In this document: one piece after another, positions 29,013-41,827 of the stretch
Numbering within the stretch: position 1 is the first letter of the stretch
Layout of the letters: each line of letters opens with the position of its first letter
Source of the DNA: Pseudobdellovibrionaceae bacterium
GTDB taxonomy: Bacteria > Bdellovibrionota > Bdellovibrionia > Bdellovibrionales > Bdellovibrionaceae
DNA: 64,000 nt
Direction: 5' to 3'
NCBI GenBank assembly: GCA_039810425.1
Contig: JBDHWW010000005.1
Coordinates: forward strand, 1-64,000
Program-made: the position numbers and the translations under genes
The notes under the pieces: model-generated
Told to the model about the DNA's origin: nothing
Seen by the model: the letters and a program-made list of their open reading frames with translations, nothing else
Database searches by the model: none

Positions 29013-29708
29013 ATGAAGCCAGTGCTGTATGCCCTCACAATCCTCCTTTTGGCTGGCGTCACTTACGCTGACGATAGCATTGATGCACAAATGGACGCGG
29101 AGCAAGCCATTGCCGATGTTGACGGTGCGCGCGCGGACGCTGAAGAAGCAAAAAAGCATGCCGCTGAAGATAAAAAACGCCACGCCAAACTTCAAGAAGA
29201 GTACCGCCAGAAACTCAAAGAGGCCAATGCGGCCAGCGCCGAAGCGTCGCGCGAAGCTGAAAAAAACCGTCGAGAGGCGGAAAAGATCAATGGCGAAAGC
29301 GCAAAGCTGGAAAAACAAATCAAGGCGCTTGAAGCGCAAAAAGCGCAGTCCGAGAAAAAGATCGAACTTACTAAGCAGAAAACAGCCAAGCTCTATCAAA
29401 AGCGTGATGAAATAAACGCCCGAAAACAAGTTAAGCAACAAGAAGTCGAACGCGTCCACGATGAAATCAAAGCCCAGGATAAAAACATCGAGCAAGCCAA
29501 TGTGGAAGTCAGGGAGGCTGAAACTGACGCCCGAGATGTCGAGCATCGTTTGGCGCAGGCCCAACGTGAACTCAAGACGGCCAAGGTGCGCTCAAAGGCT
29601 AAAGTGAAGGCGGCCCAAATGCGCGCCGCCAAGGCCCGCAAACGCGCTGACAAAGCCAACCTGGCCCGCAAGAAGACGGAAAAAATTCTCGGCGCTGTTC
29701 AGCGCTAG
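29013..29708 (+). CDS. Exported coiled-coil protein with a basic C-terminus
   Basis: AGGAG RBS, signal peptide ending TYA, heptad-rich A/E/K/Q body. Confidence 0.78.
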   Translation: MKPVLYALTILLLAGVTYADDSIDAQMDAEQAIADVDGARADAEEAKKHAAEDKKRHAKLQEEYRQKLKEANAASAEASREAEKNRREAEKINGESAKLEKQIKALEAQKAQSEKKIELTKQKTAKLYQKRDEINARKQVKQQEVERVHDEIKAQDKNIEQANVEVREAETDARDVEHRLAQAQRELKTAKVRSKAKVKAAQMRAAKARKRADKANLARKKTEKILGAVQR

Positions 29709-30097
29709 CGCTTTGTTTTTGGGCGGCGCCCTTCGAGTTCGTTCACGCGTTTTTGCAAATGGAAAATTTCTTGTTGCATATCACGCATCTGATTTTTGAG
29801 TTCTTCACTTGGATCCACGGAGCTGACTTGTCTCATCGGTACGATGCGGTCTTCTTCTTCGTCTTTTTCATCATCGAAGGCGGCGGGCGAAATTTCGGTC
29901 ACGGGTTTCGTAATCGTTTGATGGGATATTTTGTGCGGCTCTTGAATGCCGCCGAAGGCACGGCTGATTTTTCGAAAGTCGGGTGGGAACCCACCCGTCA
30001 CGATCGAAAGGAAAGCAATGAACATGATACCGCTCACGAAGAGACTCTTAACAACTGTTGCAAAGATTTTTGCGAGGGTTTCCACCAGACGGCCCAT
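29705..30097 (-). CDS. Hypothetical single-TM protein with C-terminal coiled coil
   Basis: Hydrophobic segment, GGFPP, C-terminal heptads; sigma-28-like -10 box just upstream. Confidence 0.65.
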   Translation of the reverse strand: MGRLVETLAKIFATVVKSLFVSGIMFIAFLSIVTGGFPPDFRKISRAFGGIQEPHKISHQTITKPVTEISPAAFDDEKDEEEDRIVPMRQVSSVDPSEELKNQMRDMQQEIFHLQKRVNELEGRRPKTKR

Positions 30098-30106
30098 TGT
30101 TTATAT

Positions 30107-30133
30107 TTATCGGCATCCCTCGACTTAAGATGA
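30107..30133 (-). promoter_or_regulatory. Possible sigma-28 promoter
   Basis: Perfect GCCGATAA -10 box with weak -35 (TCAT) at 15-bp spacing. Confidence 0.5.
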
Positions 30134-30226
30134 GGGCTCGTGTGGGAATTTAAGGAATTTTCATTCTGAGATAGCTACTTGTAGCGCAGTCACATGTTAG
30201 CGCTCTTGGTCGCTTGCTTCTGCGCG

Positions 30227-30243
30227 TGTCTCACCCTGAGAAA
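30227..30243. promoter_or_regulatory. Palindromic site TGTCTCA-N3-TGAGA(A)A
   Basis: Ends about 40 bp upstream of the sigma-54 GG; related copies at 53283-53299 and 37088-37102. Confidence 0.5.
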
Positions 30244-30281
30244 TTTCGCTCTGTAACTCTGCGATCCGTGGTCGAGTCGGG

Positions 30282-30297
30282 TGGCACGCGGCCTGCA
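30282..30297 (+). promoter_or_regulatory. Sigma-54 (-24/-12) promoter
   Basis: TGGCACGCGGCCTGCA, correct GG-N10-GC spacing. Confidence 0.7.
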
Positions 30298-30307
30298 ATA
30301 GGTATTA

Positions 30308-30379
30308 AGTAACAAACGAACTTCCCCCCAAGTTCACCCCCAAAACCCAGGCTTCCCCCCAAGTCTGGGTTTTTCTTTT
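30308..30379 (+). ncRNA. Candidate small RNA with two C6-loop hairpins ending in an intrinsic terminator
   Basis: GAACTT-CCCCCC-AAGTTC, linker ACCCCCAAA, ACCCAGGCTT-CCCCCC-AAGTCTGGGT-TTTTCTTTT directly after a sigma-54 motif; no ORF. Confidence 0.65.
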
Positions 30380-30487
30380 GTCCCTGTCTTACTCTGGGAA
30401 TGTCCTAGACTAAAGCCTGAATTTCAATTCGTGCCCGGGGGAATACATAAAGAAAGCTCCTCTATTTTCCGATAGTTATCTTAAGTC

Positions 30488-31726
30488 ATGGCTAAGAAAA
30501 AAACGAAGAAACAGACACCTAAAGATGATTTGATCGAATCGCTCATGAACGATGTTCAAGAGATCAGCGATCAACCCACGCAGCACGGAAAACGTGCCGT
30601 GGATTCTTTATTTCTGGATGATGAAAGTGGCGTTGATCAAGGCAATGACGAATTCCTCGTCGGTTTCGGCGGAGAAGAAAACCGTGTTGAAGAGCAAAAC
30701 TCTCACGTTGCTGGCCTCTGGCAACAAATGAATGAACCCGGTGTTGATGCTCCGGAAAATCTTGAAGAAGTCCCTGACGTCGAAGAGTTCCGCGAAAAGT
30801 CCTTTGGTTCCGCAATGGAGCCACCAATTGTAGCCGCGGAAGAGAAATCCATTGTAGCCACCACTGAAGAGAAATCCAATCCTGAGGGCTATGATGACAA
30901 AACAGTGAATATCCAAGAGGTTGAGAGCTCAAAAGGCGGTTTTGACTCTTTGGATGAAGAACCTTCCAAGAGCCATAGCGCGGATTCTGAAAGAACGGTG
31001 GCGGTGGAAGGCTTTGCCAATCGCCAACCGAAAGCTCCAGCGAGCGTGGCGCCGAAAATCAGTTTTGGTTCATTGCGTGACCCACGTCAGGCCGCCGGTG
31101 GCCCGCCAGACGGAAGTATTTTTGCGTCAGGTGATGCGACATTGGCTCAGGCCGAAAGTTTGAAACTGGCGCAGCAACGCATTCTTGATCTTGAAAAAGA
31201 AGTGGAAAAGTACCGGCTCGAAAATGAAGAGCTGGCGTCGGCCGGTGATATCATTCGTAATCGGTCCGAAGAATTAACCGCGAGAATTTTCACACTAGAA
31301 AAAGAAAAGCAAGAAGTTTCAGACTCGTTACAAAACGAGCTGACGATCATCAAAGGGACTCTACAGTACAAAGAGACGGAAGTCGGAAAAGCCCGACTAA
31401 AGATTGAAGAGCTTGAGCTTCGCCTTAAATCTGATTTCAAGAAAATTCGTGTTCGTGAAAGAGAATTAGAAAATCGTCTAGAGCTTGTCAAAGCGGAAAA
31501 GACAGCGCTGCTGAGGGCTAAGGATGAGAATATTCTCGAGCTGAAGAGAAAGATTGATCATCTTCAAGGCGAAATGGATAATTATAGAAGTAAAGTTCTC
31601 GAGCTCAACAAGACAATTGATGCGAATCAAGAGCAATTCAAGCGCACGGTGCGTGCGTTGCGTTTGGCTTTGAGCAACTTAGAGGTTAAAGAGGAGAACA
31701 TCGTTCCTTTGAAGAAAGCTGATTAG
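30488..31726 (+). CDS. Hypothetical protein: acidic disordered N-half, long coiled-coil C-half
   Basis: 412-aa ORF; heptad repeats from about residue 220; 2 bp from the next gene. Confidence 0.8.
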   Translation: MAKKKTKKQTPKDDLIESLMNDVQEISDQPTQHGKRAVDSLFLDDESGVDQGNDEFLVGFGGEENRVEEQNSHVAGLWQQMNEPGVDAPENLEEVPDVEEFREKSFGSAMEPPIVAAEEKSIVATTEEKSNPEGYDDKTVNIQEVESSKGGFDSLDEEPSKSHSADSERTVAVEGFANRQPKAPASVAPKISFGSLRDPRQAAGGPPDGSIFASGDATLAQAESLKLAQQRILDLEKEVEKYRLENEELASAGDIIRNRSEELTARIFTLEKEKQEVSDSLQNELTIIKGTLQYKETEVGKARLKIEELELRLKSDFKKIRVRERELENRLELVKAEKTALLRAKDENILELKRKIDHLQGEMDNYRSKVLELNKTIDANQEQFKRTVRALRLALSNLEVKEENIVPLKKAD

Positions 31727-31728
31727 AC

Positions 31729-32844
31729 ATGGAGCAAGTCACCTCAGTTGAAACCGCCCAAGCTGTTAAAAAGATTAAAGTCGTTATTAGTGATTTGCAT
31801 CTTGGCAAGGGCCGCGTTTTAGAAAACGGCGGCATTAACTCTTTCGAAGAATTTTACTTTTCAGAAAAACTTGTTGAGTTCATTCATTATTACTCTTCAG
31901 GCATCTACCGTGATTACGAAGTCGAGTTGATCATCAACGGTGACTTCCTCAATTGCTTGCAGGTGGACTATCGCGGCCACTTCTTGACGGTCATAACTGA
32001 GAATGTCGCTCTTGAGGTCATTAAGTCCATCATTAAGGGCCACATGAAGGTTTTTAAAGCGATGGCGGAGTTTGCCGCCAAACCCGGTAATTCTGTGACA
32101 TATATCGTTGGCAACCATGATCAAGCGATGCTTTGGCCGGCGTGCCGTGCATACTTGAATCAAGTTGTCGGCACGCCGATTCGCTATAAGAACATCGTTT
32201 ACTTCTTTGACGGCGTTCATATTGAGCATGGTCATATGCATGAAGCAGCGAACCGCATGGATCCAAAAAAGTTTTTCCTGAAGAAAGATTTGCCGGAGCC
32301 GATTTTGAATCTGCCATTTGGTTCCCACTTCTTTGTGGAACTTGTTCTTAAGGTGAAACACAAATATCCGCATGTGGATAAGATTCGTCCGTTCTCGAAA
32401 ATGATTAAGTGGGCGATGTTTAACGAAACCCGCATGCTTGTGAATTCGTTTATCTCGTTAATCGTTTATTTTGGGAAGACGTTGGTGGTGAAAGATCCGC
32501 GCCGGCATTGGCCATTTAAACGTATTTTACAAGTCATCCTTGAGAGCGCGATCTTTCCTGATTTGAGTGAAGCTGCCCGCCGCGTGTTGGGGGACGAGCG
32601 CGTTCATACCGTGATCTTTGGCCACACCCATGTTTACCAATATCGTCAATGGTCCACGGATAAAGAATATTTTAACACCGGGACTTGGACCGAGCTGACC
32701 TCGCTGGATATCGTTTCTTTAGGTAAGATCACAAAGCTCACATATGTGTTAATTGAATATCCCGAAGATGGCGGAAGACCGCGGGGCCGTTTGAAGGAGT
32801 GGCGTGGTTATCACCGTATCGAGGAAGACGTCGCGGTTTCATAG
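31729..32844 (+). CDS. Calcineurin-like metallophosphoesterase
   Basis: ISDLHLG, NGDF, VGNHD, EHGH, FGHTH, NTGTW. Confidence 0.9.
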   Translation: MEQVTSVETAQAVKKIKVVISDLHLGKGRVLENGGINSFEEFYFSEKLVEFIHYYSSGIYRDYEVELIINGDFLNCLQVDYRGHFLTVITENVALEVIKSIIKGHMKVFKAMAEFAAKPGNSVTYIVGNHDQAMLWPACRAYLNQVVGTPIRYKNIVYFFDGVHIEHGHMHEAANRMDPKKFFLKKDLPEPILNLPFGSHFFVELVLKVKHKYPHVDKIRPFSKMIKWAMFNETRMLVNSFISLIVYFGKTLVVKDPRRHWPFKRILQVILESAIFPDLSEAARRVLGDERVHTVIFGHTHVYQYRQWSTDKEYFNTGTWTELTSLDIVSLGKITKLTYVLIEYPEDGGRPRGRLKEWRGYHRIEEDVAVS

Positions 32845-34001: not shown

Positions 34002-35458
34002 ATGACATCGGATACTAGTTTGACGCCGGCTGAGCGGCTTATTTTGCTCAGAAAAAAATTAGGGCTTTCGCAGCGAGAGATGGCAAAGGAGTTCAAAGTT
34101 TCTAACGGAGCCATAGCGCTTTGGGAACAAGGCGGACGGCCGGTGCCCGGCTCTGTGCTTAAGCTGTTGGACCTCTATGAAGGATCTCCGCAGGATCTGC
34201 CCGAAGACCTTCGGGCGATATTTTCTAAAAATCTGGTGGTTATTGAAGAGGAAAGGGAACTACTCAATTCCCTTCAACACTATTTATCCGACCACCTGTC
34301 TTTGAACTACATTAAAGGAAAAATTCTAACTCAGTTCGTCCGGCAGTTGATTTTCTTTTTTCGCGAATCCAAGGGACTCACGATGAAGTTGATGCAAGTT
34401 GCCAGTTATATCGAGACCGGTTTGCCGCATGAGGCTCGTAAGGCTTTGGCAAAGTTTCCGCAAAGCTCCAAGCCGAGCCCGTACAAAACTGTGAAAAGAA
34501 TTATAAGTGAAGACCTTGGGCAGAGCCCGGAAGCACTTTTTTCCGAGTGGAGCAAGGACCCCTTGGCGGTCACCAGCTTAGGGCAAGTTCATAAGGCTCG
34601 TCTTAAGAGTGGCAGACTGGTCGCTGTCAAAGTACAGCACGATGATATTCAAAAAATTTTAGACAAGCAGTTTAAGAGCATCGATTTAATGGCGCGGCTG
34701 TTAACCATGTTTAAGCAATCCGACCATCCGGTCCTTGAGGATATCAAAGAGAAAATTCATCGCGAGTGTGACTATCAGGCAGAGGCCCGGCAGCAACTGA
34801 GGTTTAAAAAATTCTTTGAGGGCGATCCTCAAATCGTGATTCCAGATGTGATTTTGGAAATGAGTTCAAAACGCGTTCTGGTGACGGAGTTTATTGAGGG
34901 GCTTTCGTATCAGGAGTTTATCGAGCAAGGAACTCGTGAACAGAAAAATGCCGCCGGTCTGGCGATTCACCGGTTGTTGGCCCGGTCCGCAGTGCAAACC
35001 GGACTTATTCATGCAGATCCTCATCCGGCGAATTTTATTTTCTTTGACGGAAAAGTGGCGGTATTGGATTTTGGCCGCGTGGTCGAATATACGGGCGAGC
35101 GTTTTGAAATGGAGAGACGCTTTGTGCACGCGCTGCTGACCGAGAATTATTCTCTTGCTCAGACGATGATTATTAAAATGGATGGCATTCAAGATCCTGA
35201 AACTTTCAATTTTGGCGAGCTCTGGAACTTTCTGGAGCGTCAGCAAACCCACTATACCCGCAACGAAAACTTTAAGTTTTCTAGAGAGCACTTGATTCGC
35301 CTGGCGGCGAATGCGCGCCGATTTAGCGGGCGCCGGCATTTGAAAATCGATAAGTGGTTTTTTGGGCATTTTTTACTAGCAATAGTGGCTTTAGCCTTTT
35401 GGCAGATTTAGAGACTGACGCTAATTGGCGCGCTGAAATGTTGTCATTTTTAGCATAA
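34002..35458 (+). pseudogene. XRE-HTH / ABC1(UbiB) kinase fusion, copy 1, frameshifted near the 3' end
   Basis: LRKKLGLSQREMAKEF..AIALWEQG HTH; TSLGQVHKA, VAVKVQ, HADPHPAN, LDFG; ORF stops at 35411 but the paralogue-like C-terminus continues in another frame to TAA 35458. Confidence 0.75.
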
Positions 35459-35602
35459 CAAAGCTGTCCGCGCTTACGGTGAAAGCATTTTTGAATAGCT
35501 ACGGCGGAAAATCCTTGCGGGCAGCAGGATTCCCACGCTTCGGCAGTTATTCAATTTGTGGAAGGGGCTGAGTCTCTGCTAGTCTAAATTCACGGAAAAA
35601 AT

Positions 35603-37099
35603 ATGGCACAATCGCAACGGCTAGTAAGTCTCAGAAATTGTTTAGGTCTATCACAAAGAGAAATGGCAGAGGAGTTCGGTGTTTCCGCTGCCGCGATCGC
35701 GCTGTGGGAGAACCGAAGACGGCCGATTCCGGGCCCCGTACTGAAACTGATGGAGCTGTATGAGCATGATGGTGGTGCCGCAGGAGTCTATCGTGGTACT
35801 GCGGAGGCCGAGGTTGAGGAACACTGCGCGGGATTTCAAAACCCGGTTTGGAAGGAAAAAGAGGCTGAAATCCTGGCCAGGTTGTGTGAGTCCGTCGAGG
35901 ATGTCCGCGGTAGTAACAGTATTAAAAGCCGACTATATACTACGGCGCTGTCGCAGTTCTTGAATTTTTTTAAACACGCTCAAGGTGTGACGATGAAAGT
36001 GGCTCACCTTGCAAGCTTCATCGAACTAGGGTTGCCCGGCGAACTTCGTAAAGCCTTTGCCGATATGGCTGAGCATGCGGAGCCTTTGCCGCCGGAAACT
36101 ATCGCGGGAGTCATTAGGAAAGATTTTGGCCGTGAACCGGAAGAGCTGTTTCTTAAGTGGGACAAAGACCCGTTGGCGAGAACCAGCTTGGGCCAAGTGC
36201 ACCGAGCTCAGTTGGTGGATGGCACCGAAGTCGTTGTCAAACTGCAGAATCCGGATATTCGTAAAATACTTGAAAACCAGTTCCGGAAAATTGAAGGGCT
36301 TCACCGTATCTCTTTGTTTTTTGAGAGTGGGGATGAACTGTTGCTTGAAGATATTAAGCGACAAGTTCTGCTTGAGATTGATTACCGGCGCGAAGCATAC
36401 AATCAACGTCGTTTTCAAAATATATTTGTGAATGACAAACAGGTCATAGTACCCAGGGTGCATCTCGAATATTCAAGTGATCGCGTTTTAACTTCAGACT
36501 ATATTGCCGGCCGCTCTTTCGACGATTTTAAACGTCAATCATCTCAGAAAGAACGCGATGAGGCCGCACAAACAATTCATCGATTTATTGCCAAATCCCT
36601 TATGGGACCCGGCTGGTTTTATGCTGACCCTCACCCACGAAACTTTAAATTTCTTGACGACAAAGTAGTATTTTTAGATTTCGGCCGGATTGTTGAATAC
36701 GACGTCGAGTTCCTACAGTTAAATCGTATCTTTTTTAAGGCCTTATTAAATGAGGACTACACCCTGGCGAAGTCATTAATGATCAAAATGGGTTCTGTTG
36801 AAGATCCCGAAAAGTTCAATTTCGAAGTTTTTTGGAGCTTTCTGAGCTTGCAACAAGTTCACTACATGACCAATCGTAAATTCAAATGCACCCCGGACCA
36901 TATGCGCCGCCTGGCTTTGGAAGCCCGCCGCTTTGGTGGGCGCAAGGGATTGAAGGTGGATAAGTGGTTTTTTTGGGCGTTCGTTTATCAGAATTCCGTC
37001 TTTAGCATTTGTGCCGATCTTCAAGCCGAGAGCAACTGGCGCTCAGATGTTTTTGCCATACTCGACGAGTGTGAAGCAGAGACTTTAGTCTTAAAATAA
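35603..37099 (+). CDS. XRE-HTH / ABC1(UbiB) kinase fusion, copy 2 (intact)
   Basis: LRNCLGLSQREMAEEF..AIALWEN; TSLGQVHRA, VVVKLQ, EIDY..EA, YADPHPRN, LDFG. Confidence 0.88.
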   Translation: MAQSQRLVSLRNCLGLSQREMAEEFGVSAAAIALWENRRRPIPGPVLKLMELYEHDGGAAGVYRGTAEAEVEEHCAGFQNPVWKEKEAEILARLCESVEDVRGSNSIKSRLYTTALSQFLNFFKHAQGVTMKVAHLASFIELGLPGELRKAFADMAEHAEPLPPETIAGVIRKDFGREPEELFLKWDKDPLARTSLGQVHRAQLVDGTEVVVKLQNPDIRKILENQFRKIEGLHRISLFFESGDELLLEDIKRQVLLEIDYRREAYNQRRFQNIFVNDKQVIVPRVHLEYSSDRVLTSDYIAGRSFDDFKRQSSQKERDEAAQTIHRFIAKSLMGPGWFYADPHPRNFKFLDDKVVFLDFGRIVEYDVEFLQLNRIFFKALLNEDYTLAKSLMIKMGSVEDPEKFNFEVFWSFLSLQQVHYMTNRKFKCTPDHMRRLALEARRFGGRKGLKVDKWFFWAFVYQNSVFSICADLQAESNWRSDVFAILDECEAETLVLK

Positions 37100-37258
37100 G
37101 ACCCGATCTTTTGGATAAGCGACTTAGTTTCGGGGCTTGTCTCGTATTAGGACTTGCCAGTCCCAACTTTTAAAGATGTATATAGCATTCTTCAGGCGTT
37201 GAAAGATGAAGGTTTTATCAAAGTCTCCTATTGCTCTGATCTGGGATCATATTCCCCG

Positions 37259-37286
37259 AGGCTCAGCGTAATGCTGAGCCTTTTTT
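37259..37286 (+). terminator. Intrinsic terminator
   Basis: AGGCTCAGC-GTAAT-GCTGAGCCT-TTTTT. Confidence 0.7.
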
Positions 37287-37335
37287 CTTGCCGCTAAAGT
37301 CTTGGGCCGGATATCTTAAAAAATCCGGAGGTCTT

Positions 37336-37605
37336 ATGAAGCCATCGTTATTGTTGATCGCTCTTCTTTTTTCGGTGAGTACTTTCGCGCAGCAGGGAAA
37401 TGATCAGCGCACCGTTAGTGAGTGTGCGACGGACCTTAAAATTAAGCTCTGGTGGGATAGTACCAAGAAAAAAGAGGCCGAAAAGTTCTGCGCAGAGTAT
37501 TCCCAAACTACAATCGATTGCGCCATCAATAATATGAAAGCCAAGCACTTGACCTATACTCAATTCGAAAGTGCGGTCAAAGATTGCCACCGGACGCGCA
37601 AATAG
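37336..37605 (+). CDS. Small secreted four-Cys helical protein
   Basis: GGAGG RBS, signal peptide ending TFA, 89 aa. Confidence 0.75.
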   Translation: MKPSLLLIALLFSVSTFAQQGNDQRTVSECATDLKIKLWWDSTKKKEAEKFCAEYSQTTIDCAINNMKAKHLTYTQFESAVKDCHRTRK

Positions 37606-37662
37606 TCTGGTTAAAAATAAAACTATTTTCTTTTGCAATCTCCATCACTCATAATGCACCCC

Positions 37663-39175
37663 ATGACCAATTCATGGCCACTTACATCCAGCAGAGCGTT
37701 TAGTTTTACTACGGGAATTTTTGGGGTTTTCCCAGCGGGAAATGGCCAAAGAGTTTCAAGTTTCACCGGGTGCCATTGCGCTTTGGGAAACCGGCTCACG
37801 GGTTATTCCAGGCCCGGTGTTGAAGTTGATGGAGGTTTATGAAAAAGCCCTGCCGACGACGACAAGAAAGAATTCCTCACTCAAAACTGACGGTTTGTTG
37901 GTTGAGTTCAGGGAAGTTTTCAATGCAAAAGGCAACGATGAAGTGCAAGGGGCGTTGGAGCTTATCAAGAACGGTTTAGATAATTTTCTGGATGATTCCT
38001 ATGCCATGAATAGTTTGCGTGGCCGTCTGAAGTTGATTTTAGTAAAGAGACTTTTGAAGTCTTTAAAAAACTCCAAAGGTCTTTCAACGAAAATCGCCCA
38101 ACTGGCGAGCTTTATGGAAATAGGCCTTTCCCCGGAAGTCCGTCGCGCTTTAGGAACCCTACAGTCTCGCAGCCTGCCAAGTAAGTTCAACGAGATTCAA
38201 AGCTTTTTGGAAGAGGAATATGGCAAGCCATTAAAAATGGTATTCTCGCATTTTCAAGAAAAGCCCATTGCGGTGACGAGCTTAGGGCAGGTTCATTATG
38301 CGAAATTGCCTGGAGGCCAGGAAGTGGCCGTTAAAGTCCAACATCCCCGGATTCACAGTATATTGCAGAAACAGTTTCGCAATATGGAACTCTTGAAAAC
38401 CTTGGGAGCTTTTTTAGGAAAGAACGACTACGGGATTATCGAAGAGCTGCGGCGGGCGTTGTTTCAGGAGTGTGATTATCAGCTAGAGGCTTTGAATCAA
38501 GAGAAGTTCCGAAATATTTGGTCTGAGGACCCGAGGATTATTGTTCCTTTTGTATACCGGGATTTAGTCCGAGACCGTGTCATGGTGACAGAGTTCATTC
38601 GGGGTGAAAGTTTTCACAGCTTTTGCGTCCGCGCCAGCCAAAGCCAACGAAACGAGGCGGCCGAAACGCTTTTGGACTGTTTAACCAAAGCGTCCTTTGG
38701 CTACGGCCAAATGTATACAGATCAACATCCGGATAATTTTTTATTCCGTGATGGGAGAGTCGTGATATTGGATTTTGGCCGGGTGGTTGAATATCCCGTG
38801 GACCGTTTGAAAGTCGAGTGTCGGTTCTACCTGCACATGATGAATCAAGAATATGAAAAGTGCCGGGTCCTTGCGGAGACTCTTTTCGCCAAGGACGCAA
38901 ACGATTTTGATTTCGATGCATTTTGGAATTTTCTGCAAAAATCCCATCAGCATTTAATAATCAATGAAAAGTTTAAGTTCTCGCGCCAATATGTGCAGTC
39001 TATCAGCCGGGAAGGGCGGATCTTCTCGAAAAAATACCAGCTCAAGATGACCAAAGAAGCGTTTTGGGCCTATGTTTTCGGTGCGAGCTCTTGGGGGATT
39101 TTGGCAGACCTTGATTCGGACATTAATTGCCGTCAGATTGCTTTAAAGAATGTCTATCTCGGCACTCAGCTTTAA
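37663..39175 (+). pseudogene. XRE-HTH / ABC1(UbiB) kinase fusion, copy 3, apparent +1 frameshift near the 5' end
   Basis: ATG 37663 gives MTNSWPLT; after one extra base (about 37687) the other frame reads PAERLVLLREFLGFSQREMAKEF, collinear with copy 1; TSLGQVH, VAVKVQ, YTDQHPDN, LDFG; long ORF 37721-39175. Confidence 0.7.
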
Positions 39176-39871: not shown

Positions 39872-41827
39872 ATGGGAAATACATGGAAGAGCCTAATTTT
39901 AGGCGCATTATTAACAAGTATGACCGCTTGTAGTGGCGGCAGCTCAGTTAGCGACGGTGCTTCTAACAGTACTGATTTGGTGATCTCGGGTAAGGTTGGG
40001 GCTATGGGAACGATGAGTGTTTCCAACAACGCCTCTGAAGGTGTCGGCAAGTTTGGTACCTACGACAATGTTAAGCTGTACGTTACAGTTTACAATGACC
40101 CACCACAAATCACGGTGGCTAACTTAGGGAGCGACGGCTCTTTCTCTGTCACGCTTCCAAACGCCAGCGGCACTGTCATCGGTGCGCAATTTAAGAACAC
40201 GCTGACCAACGTGGTAAAGCATGTGTACTTCCAAGATTCTAGCAAAAAGGACATGAATTCTTCTGACATGCTAATGGAATCTTATCCACTGAAAGGAAGT
40301 GTTAACTTCGGTACTTTGGATTTGTCCGGAGCAAAACCAGTTATTGACGTTGTTGCTGTCATCCCGGCTGAAAATCGCGCGGATGCTGGTGGCGATGTTG
40401 TTGGTTATGACTTTAGTGGTTCCTTCAAAATGGCTAGCTATAGCATTCCTCAAGCACTCAAAGACCAAGGCTTCATTACAGCTGAAGTGGACAACGGTGG
40501 TAACCATCAATCTTGTGGCGATGAGCCCTGTCTGCCTGTAGACATGCCAATCACTTTGGTGAAGTACTCAGGTAAAGAGTTCACTAAGGGCGCGGGTTGT
40601 ACCGAAAGCGACTGTAAAGCAGATGGTACGGAAGGAACTGTCGGCACGGCAAATAAGTACGGTCTTTCTATCTGGGAAGGTCCGGCATCAGGCGCAGGGA
40701 GCGGTCTTCAAGATTGCGGTTACAATTCAGGCTTCACGGCGGACTCAGCTCGCTTCGGTGCTGGTATTCACATTGCTTCTGCCGCAATCGGTTCTCAAGC
40801 GATGAGTTTGGCTAATTTCACATTCGGTACGCTGGGCGGGACTGAGCCATGGATGAAGACGACCGCGGAGGCTCAATATGATGTCTATGATTGCGCACCA
40901 AAAGCGCACGTGGTCAGCGGGACGACTTATAATCTGCATGTATGTAAAGCTTTGGTGTGGGCGGATAACGGCAACACGCTCGATAAGACCATTTACTATG
41001 CAAATGAACAAAGTGCGGACAACGGTTGCCTGGAAGACGGTACTAACAAGCCTGTGATGGTTTCTGACTGGAGTATTAATCCCGAGAATCCGAGTTGCTG
41101 GAGTGGTACGGAGGTTTTCCCTGGCTTTAAGCGCACCAGCTGTCACTATGTGAACCAAGATCCAGATGGCAGTGGTCCTGTGGCGGCAACATCATTCACT
41201 TGTAAAAGTGGACAAGGAACTTTTGCAGACGCAGCTTTGACGACAGCAGCAGTTCCTGGCATTAACTATTTCACAGATCCGACGACTCGTACAGGTTCAC
41301 CGGCTAAGCTTTTAACTAAAGGCGGTCTTTGCAGCAGTCTTCCGACTGGAACGGATGCTGAGAAGCTCGCTTCCTACCAGTGTTTTGCTCAAAGTTATGA
41401 TCGTAACGACGGCGGTGGCTGTATGCGTGAGTATCGCTTCAACTGGGGGGCTAAAACTTCAGCTGATTTTGTGATGACAGACGGTCGTCCTCGTCCAAGT
41501 TCGAACTTTTTGACAGACATCGTGACTTATTCAGCAGATGGAAACACGTTCTTTGTTAACAACAACGAAAAGGAAACAGTGGGTATTTCTTCCGGCCAAA
41601 ATGGCGGAATGGAATTCTGCGAAATCGAGAGCTCTACGAAACTTGTAGGTAAGAAAATGAGTGATGGCCAGCAATTGGTCACCTTGGTTCAATCTGGAGT
41701 TTTGCTGAGCTCTGACAAGACTGCTTGTGTGGCCGCAGTGAACGGTGCCGATACATGGGAAAATGGCAATCTTTCATACCGTGTAGGCGAAGGCAAAAAA
41801 TTCATGTTCATTTTGAACAAACAATAA
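39872..41827 (+). CDS. Large Cys/Gly/Ser/Thr-rich lipoprotein of unknown function
   Basis: AAGGAG RBS; lipobox MTAC followed by an SGGSS linker; 16 further Cys. Confidence 0.85.
   Translation: MGNTWKSLILGALLTSMTACSGGSSVSDGASNSTDLVISGKVGAMGTMSVSNNASEGVGKFGTYDNVKLYVTVYNDPPQITVANLGSDGSFSVTLPNASGTVIGAQFKNTLTNVVKHVYFQDSSKKDMNSSDMLMESYPLKGSVNFGTLDLSGAKPVIDVVAVIPAENRADAGGDVVGYDFSGSFKMASYSIPQALKDQGFITAEVDNGGNHQSCGDEPCLPVDMPITLVKYSGKEFTKGAGCTESDCKADGTEGTVGTANKYGLSIWEGPASGAGSGLQDCGYNSGFTADSARFGAGIHIASAAIGSQAMSLANFTFGTLGGTEPWMKTTAEAQYDVYDCAPKAHVVSGTTYNLHVCKALVWADNGNTLDKTIYYANEQSADNGCLEDGTNKPVMVSDWSINPENPSCWSGTEVFPGFKRTSCHYVNQDPDGSGPVAATSFTCKSGQGTFADAALTTAAVPGINYFTDPTTRTGSPAKLLTKGGLCSSLPTGTDAEKLASYQCFAQSYDRNDGGGCMREYRFNWGAKTSADFVMTDGRPRPSSNFLTDIVTYSADGNTFFVNNNEKETVGISSGQNGGMEFCEIESSTKLVGKKMSDGQQLVTLVQSGVLLSSDKTACVAAVNGADTWENGNLSYRVGEGKKFMFILNKQ

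Follow-up and report, generated by a model that had tools for sequence, protein, structure and literature searches.

The design closest to that of the RNA described here is found in LhrC1-5 of Listeria monocytogenes, in which a C-rich motif occurs three times, that is in loop A, in a single-stranded stretch and in the terminator loop (PMC4132741). According to this study, the Shine-Dalgarno region of lapB can be bound by each of the three sites, the RNAs are multicopy and G-poor, and Hfq is dispensable (PMC4132741). Induction of LhrC occurs through LisRK. Precedents for the transcriptional control come from other lineages. The small RNA Pxr of Myxococcus xanthus, whose lineage is devoid of hfq, possesses a predicted sigma-54 promoter together with an upstream enhancer region; it has three stem-loops and is located directly after the NtrC-like activator gene pxrR (PMC5684412). 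In Vibrio, the abstract of the relevant study states that sigma-54 and the activator LuxO drive several sibling small RNAs, Qrr1-5 (10.1101/2021.07.01.450815). In the literature on Bdellovibrio small RNA, sigma-54 and RpoN, including the available part of PMC3627812, no published description of the 72-nt RNA studied here or of its 54-nt sister was found; this part of the article reports eight attack-phase RNAs in one strain, with FliA promoters for three of them, and leaves sigma-54 unmentioned.

The locus lies in a stretch of 64,000 nt from a member of the Pseudobdellovibrionaceae, referred to as the window, in which the segment 30282-30379 very probably represents a genuine gene, standing on its own, for a regulatory RNA of ~72 bases of Bdellovibrio-type predators, expressed via sigma-54. 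As in LhrC, C-tracts (here C6, C5 and C6) are present at the same three positions, and Hfq was not found in the genome. The two nevertheless differ in that the tracts are C5-7 as compared to CUCCC, that the hosts belong to different phyla, that a sigma-54 promoter takes the place of induction through LisRK, and that action on targets has been demonstrated for LhrC, whereas it is proposed by inference for the RNA here. Thus, the three redundant C-rich sites that characterize LhrC-type RNAs are present, but sequence homology to lhrC is absent, as judged by the missing Rfam match and the lack of any detected sequence relation; the LhrC layout has been reached independently here, and the RNA is an analogue rather than a member.

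The search of Rfam 15 yielded no family reaching its gathering threshold for the RNA, the only passing match being a tRNA located at another place in the window. When the region 30100-30500 was scanned permissively at E <= 10, two families only were returned, both far below threshold, namely the rnk leader (RF01772, 15.2 bits as compared to a gathering threshold of 55) and ErsA/Pseudomon-1 (RF01719, 13.9 bits as compared to 50). This agrees with the initial annotation, in which the RNA had not been recognised as a described family. ErsA is similar in that a terminator is combined with two hairpins whose loops are C-rich, but is driven by an alternative (envelope-stress) sigma factor, unlike the RNA here with its sigma-54-type promoter. 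The Qrr RNAs are Hfq-dependent and carry a different conserved seed, and they do not match the RNA in Rfam. Pxr is likewise preceded by a sigma-54 promoter and operates in an Hfq-free setting (PMC5684412), but differs in its three stem-loops and in its position next to pxrR, as no sigma-54 activator adjoins the RNA at any of 34 loci; here, too, an Rfam match is missing at E <= 10. In sum, the RNA parallels LhrC in its design and Pxr and Qrr in its control without belonging to any of them, and represents a new family of a known kind.

Anatomy of the RNA gene and its sigma-54-type promoter

Sigma-54 promoters follow the consensus TGGCAC-N5-TTGCW, with GG at -24, GC at -12 and ten bases in between. 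Across the promoter listed in Table 1 the plus strand reads TGGCACgcggcCTGCA, with GG at 30283-84, GC at 30295-96 and a spacer of 10, which confirms the -24/-12 motif that had been assigned to these positions at the outset. The pattern is not rare by itself: TGGYAYN5YTGCW matches twice in the window as compared to 0.51 expected matches, and two or more matches were obtained in 15 of 100 shuffles. Therefore, the weight rests on the position of the element and on its conservation in relatives, where the consensus over 30 members reads TGG(C/T)NY-N5-TTGCAATA, followed by an A/T-rich stretch. The other match in the window (40762-40777, plus strand) is located inside an ORF (39872-41827) and is probably due to chance. 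A promoter scan detected no sigma-70-like site directly upstream of the RNA, the closest one being ~200 nt off. The genome encodes RpoN (one Sigma54_DBD match, 219 bits) and yields 11 strong Sigma54_activat matches, corresponding to ~11 full activators.

Table 1. Features of the RNA locus and its flanking genes (positions in the window)
Feature	Position	Strand	Basis
Gene, 130 aa, without Pfam family	29705-30097	-	
Upstream blocks (~30192-30214, ~30236-30257); candidate enhancer for a sigma-54 activator	30192-30257	+	alignment of G000, G005 and G001a
Sigma-54-type promoter, -24 GG / -12 GC (TGGCACGCGGCCTGCA)	30282-30297	+	sequence, conservation in relatives
Predicted small RNA, ~72 nt	30308-30379	+	fold, covariance model, pair counts
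Hairpin 1: 6-bp stem, CCCCCC loop 30324-30329 (C-tract 1)	30318-30335	+	sequence, fold
Linker ACCCCCAAAA, C-tract 2 at 30337-30341	30336-30345	+	sequence, fold
Intrinsic terminator: arms 30344-30354 and 30361-30371, tail TTTTTCTTTT	30344-30379	+	fold, terminator scan
Gene, 412 aa, without Pfam family	30488-31726	+	

Two blocks upstream of the promoter are common to the two closest relatives, and this alignment makes them candidates for an enhancer to which a sigma-54 activator may bind. The distal block has no other occurrence genome-wide, and none of the genome's other sigma-54-like sites has either block upstream of it. TTCTCA/TGAGAA repeats were also considered as an activator site and were rejected as too frequent to be of use.

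Transcription would be started by sigma-54 RNA polymerase and an activator near 30308, a start that was placed 12 nt past the -12 C, and would end near 30379 at the strong hairpin and its U-tail, into which the 3' end was set. Hairpin 1 begins ~20 nt beyond the promoter and is formed by the arms GAACTT (30318-30323) and AAGTTC (30330-30335). The 5' part of the linker including its C-tract is unpaired in the predicted fold, and its final A residues belong to the terminator stem. The terminator hairpin reads AACCCAGGCTT-CCCCCC-AAGTCTGGGTT, with the loop (30355-30360) representing C-tract 3, and is followed by the tail, which extends to 30379; the terminator scan recorded a 13-pair stem plus a T-run. 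Folding of an 81-nt stretch gave -22.4 kcal/mol (z = -5.33), a stability that was equalled by none of 200 shuffles. The 13-mer CTTCCCCCCAAGT is present twice in the window (30321-30333 and 30352-30364), a match that occurred in 0 of 100 shuffles. On the plus strand, no ATG, GTG or TTG was seen within the 72 nt, and the overlapping ORFs are short and restricted to the minus strand. Indeed, hairpin 1, the single-stranded linker and the C6-loop terminator with its U-tail, as well as the exact 13-mer duplication and the ORF-free stretch of ~72 nt, had all been claimed in the initial annotation and were recovered from sequence and fold.

The gene occupies the gap between the 130-aa and the 412-aa gene (Table 1). 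No RNA sequencing run containing the stretch was found. Four wastewater runs, probably consisting of DNA and available as contigs, provided five short contigs on 29700-31800 and none over the RNA, which is uninformative on expression. The genome is 99.88% complete; it encodes CsrA and contains no match to the Pfam model of Hfq. Elsewhere in the window (34002-39175, plus strand), three successive paralogues encode a helix-turn-helix fused to an ABC1 atypical-kinase domain.

Distribution of the family and conservation of its structure

BLAST detected the stretch in three more genomes, one of them carrying two copies at separate places, and a narrow pattern matched in 8 of 182 family genomes with 0 matches in the reversed control. 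Regular expressions for a broader family proved too noisy to be used over the whole collection. The covariance models start past the promoter and thus exclude it. Model R2 matched 59 of 151 Bdellovibrionaceae genomes at E <= 0.01, and its 26 top matches (>=48 bits) all display GG-N10-GC at a fitting distance. Matches below 48 bits are mixed, comprising short promoter-keeping members (G194, G009, G094) and promoter-less look-alikes. Among the inspected matches, i.e. those returned as loci or fetched, which include a minority of the weak ones, the promoter-bearing form was verified in at least 19 of the 151 family genomes, including 10/10 of one genus. Distribution is patchy, as the RNA was not found in four of the six other genomes of the window's own genus. 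The design extends to other families: the order-level search provided a match in 50 of 151 genomes (E <= 0.001); among the loci read, canonical promoters are present in G275, G206, G214 and G274, and G215 has AG where GG is expected. Two of the genomes (G207 and G242, loci L071 and L072; one genus, two species) carry TGGCAY-N3-TTGCA, which is two bases short of sigma-54 spacing. At the level of the phylum, 15 of 151 genomes gave a match (E <= 1e-4), and in G336, which is placed outside the order, a canonical promoter stands before a hairpin bearing several C-tracts and a C-loop terminator.

Two to three copies per genome are present in G001, G090, G187, G188, G179 and others. The two copies in G090 are 1.6 kb apart, and those in G274 are identical and separated by ~530 nt. 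Four equal-score model matches with a spacing of ~420 nt were observed in a further genome (G222:C1:1674523-1675846), possibly reflecting a tandem array.

For analysis of the structure, 30 members selected for promoter and model fit were aligned. Standard pairs occupy 99.8% of the cells in this alignment, which was fitted to the model, a procedure that favours the structure. Compensatory, that is two-sided, changes were observed in 13 of the 15 pairs (hairpin 1, 5/6; terminator, 8/9 modelled pairs), and the observed pairing measures were reached in none of 500 shuffles, with slid controls pairing at 19-60%. Since 13/15 pairs covary, the stems vary freely. The elements kept throughout the family are C5-7 in loop 1, the linker CCCC(C)YWAAA and C5-7 in the terminator loop; three short members are devoid of hairpin 1 and present C-tract 1 as a single strand. 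Thus, the RNA structure is under selection and the C-tracts are its constant part, which agrees with what the initial annotation had asked of relatives, namely covariation and conservation of the C-loops, all three tracts being kept in the 30 members. The possibility that a C-loop is a generic feature of terminators was ruled out, as a loop with C5 or more occurs in only 8 of 2384 terminator-like hairpins of the genome.

The linker-plus-terminator module also occurs in promoter-less look-alikes, which are apparently located just 3' of coding sequences, as judged by eye. One of them is found in the own genome (C22:24104-24175, minus strand), where ACCCCCTAAAA precedes a hairpin whose loop reads UCCCCC and a sigma-54 promoter is lacking; similar copies are present in many genomes of the neighbouring genus. 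Such copies could represent RNAs that derive from 3' UTRs and share the seeds, or could hint at another role, e.g. protein binding. That is, existence of the module at gene 3' ends without a promoter means that its role may not be seed pairing.

A shorter sigma-54 C-rich RNA of ~54 nt is encoded in the same genome (C43:163-240, plus strand; promoter TGGCACcgccaTTGCT); in the neighbouring genus, 41 of the 44 genomes carry a single copy of it. This sister RNA contains a single-stranded C7 tract and a terminator loop with C3 and C8 runs. It resembles the 72-nt RNA in promoter type, in the exposed 5' C-tract and in the C-rich terminator loop, but differs by the absence of hairpin 1 and by its upstream region, which is why it probably responds to another activator. 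Two of the short members without hairpin 1 (G009, G094) bridge the 72-nt and 54-nt forms in the alignment.

Related designs were noticed at other places. On contig C7 (~79,970-80,290), a minus-strand gene comprises a sigma-54 promoter (TGGCACgcgagTTGCT) driving an ORF of ~70 aa with a signal-peptide-like start, and two C-rich-loop hairpins are located 3' of this ORF. In Salinisphaera and one Endozoicomonas record (loci L094, L095, L108, L110, L115 and L119), another small-RNA family exhibits UUCCCCCCAAG in one loop and UUCCCCC in that of the terminator, and occurs as tandem pairs in two genomes. Its promoter, GGAACT ... TCTGA, is presumably of the envelope-stress sigma type, and the C-loop design was apparently acquired independently.

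Proposed action on G-run mRNAs and alternative readings

As to function, we lean, with little better than even confidence, to the reading that the RNA would be a sigma-54-dependent, Hfq-independent, trans-acting regulator whose three C-tracts cover Shine-Dalgarno sites consisting of G-runs. In this scheme, the near-identical C-runs of loop 1, linker and terminator loop would serve as redundant seed sites, which would pair with runs of at least five G residues, chiefly GGGGG-type Shine-Dalgarno sequences, thereby blocking ribosome binding on a set of mRNAs; pairing would proceed without Hfq. It is the combination of an LhrC-like anatomy, a genome without detected Hfq and G-run sites that leads us to read the RNA as a chaperone-independent repressor of G-run mRNAs. 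With respect to the trans-acting anti-Shine-Dalgarno RNA proposed in the initial annotation, this means that the discrete, conserved and neighbour-independent RNA gene with its own promoter and terminator is borne out, but that the anti-Shine-Dalgarno action is an interpretation of anatomy and analogy. A G5 run can presumably be used as ribosome-binding site through one G-U pair with the usual CCUCC. The C-tracts would match a run of this kind without a mismatch, unlike GGAGG; the poorer pairing of C6 with the usual GGAGG is a point against this reading.

A run of G5 or longer precedes the start codon by 2-14 nt in 89 of the 3225 crude gene calls. N-termini resembling signal peptides are enriched among these genes (43/89 as compared to 856/3136 of the others; odds ratio 2.5, Fisher p = 3.5e-5), an enrichment that relies on a crude heuristic as well as on the crude gene calls. 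Among the products of genes with G6 or longer runs are two trypsin-like proteases, both secreted, an alpha/beta hydrolase and a number of exported proteins not assigned to a family, and three genes with G5-6 sites stand behind sigma-54-like promoters. None of the 11 activator genes, nor rpoN, has a G5 run in its start region. A home-made hybridisation-plus-accessibility scan of 3225 crude start regions, which is no substitute for IntaRNA/CopraRNA, revealed no outstanding target; the most favourable net energy, ~-10 kcal/mol, belongs to a site located far 5' of the start codon. Conservation of the G-run was followed for two genes in five genomes. The G6 run of a trypsin-like protease gene corresponds to GAGGGG in the RNA-bearing G005 and G001 and to G5 in one relative without detected RNA; the site is thus not specifically retained in RNA-bearing genomes and provides no sign of co-evolution for the protease gene. 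For the second gene, a G5-6 run is retained in three genomes that carry the RNA, and the non-bearers are unalignable at its start.

Alternatively, the RNA could act as a decoy that titrates a protein recognizing C-rich loops, with the repeated motif providing multiple binding sites, a reading to which we assign a rather low probability. There is precedent for this principle in CsrB/RsmZ, whose GGA loops are multiple binding sites for CsrA. Display of one motif three times in exposed positions, the variation of C-tract number from 2 to ~5 among relatives (e.g. G283, G204, G336), as would be found for a multi-site sponge, and the multicopy state in several genomes are all consistent with a decoy. 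However, the motif recognized by CsrA is GGA, and although CsrA is present, no GGA was seen in loops or linker, and we know of no C-tract-binding global regulator in the Bdellovibrio-type lineage. Moreover, the threefold C-rich layout of LhrC works through base-pairing (PMC4132741).

It is likewise improbable, albeit conceivable, that the RNA base-pairs at G-rich sites other than ribosome-binding sites, e.g. in coding regions, in 5' UTR structures or in another RNA. Effects would then consist in changed mRNA stability, in activation of translation through opening of a structure, or in sponging of a G-rich RNA. Of the 502 G6 or longer runs on both strands of the genome, only 20 fall in the 40 nt that precede a called start, and the top sites in the crude scan are located 50-80 nt upstream of starts, which fits this reading. 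Yet these 20 runs are about twice the expectation of ~9 for the 40 nt before starts, and LhrC, RsaE and RNAIII act on Shine-Dalgarno regions, as stated in PMC4132741.

The genomic neighbourhood bears on a last reading. A survey of the nearest sizeable ORF on each side at 34 loci (63 ORFs) revealed mutually unrelated Pfam families. Sigma-54 activators are absent from these flanking ORFs, one of which encodes a protein that has a receiver domain but no sigma-54 AAA+ domain, and also from the window genes scanned. Neighbours thus vary and the downstream genes are often convergent, which argues that the RNA is not a leader; with its own promoter and terminator conserved independently of the neighbours, it has the properties of a trans-acting small RNA gene. 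A cis-acting leader or attenuator of 30488-31726 in place of a separate RNA is therefore most improbable: although both here and in the nearest relative G005 a gene in the same orientation begins 109 nt past the U-tail, this 412-aa gene is shared with G005 only, and the 13-pair terminator is followed by a U-run with no alternative antiterminator evident.

A much bolder scenario can also be formulated, which we regard as speculative and unlikely. Hfq-less Bdellovibrio-type predators may use a 'G-run ribosome-binding-site code', in which Shine-Dalgarno sequences of the GGGGG rather than the GGAGG type would mark a subset of genes enriched for exported proteins such as secreted trypsin-like proteases and lipoproteins, and in which two paralogous sigma-54 C-tract RNA families, the 72-nt and the 54-nt form, would silence all of these genes at once in response to signals sensed by dedicated activators. 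If true, the G-run code could time when the predatory secretome is released. Bdellovibrio and related bacteria have been little explored with respect to post-transcriptional control, and a conserved, sometimes multicopy RNA that appears tied through sigma-54 to a signal-sensing activator provides a defined entry point, consisting of one promoter, one 72-nt RNA and three mutable sites. The RNA is also an independent example of the LhrC-style three-site C-rich design, from a Gram-negative lineage without detected Hfq, and thereby lends support to the idea that strong G-C kissing contacts can stand in for a chaperone.
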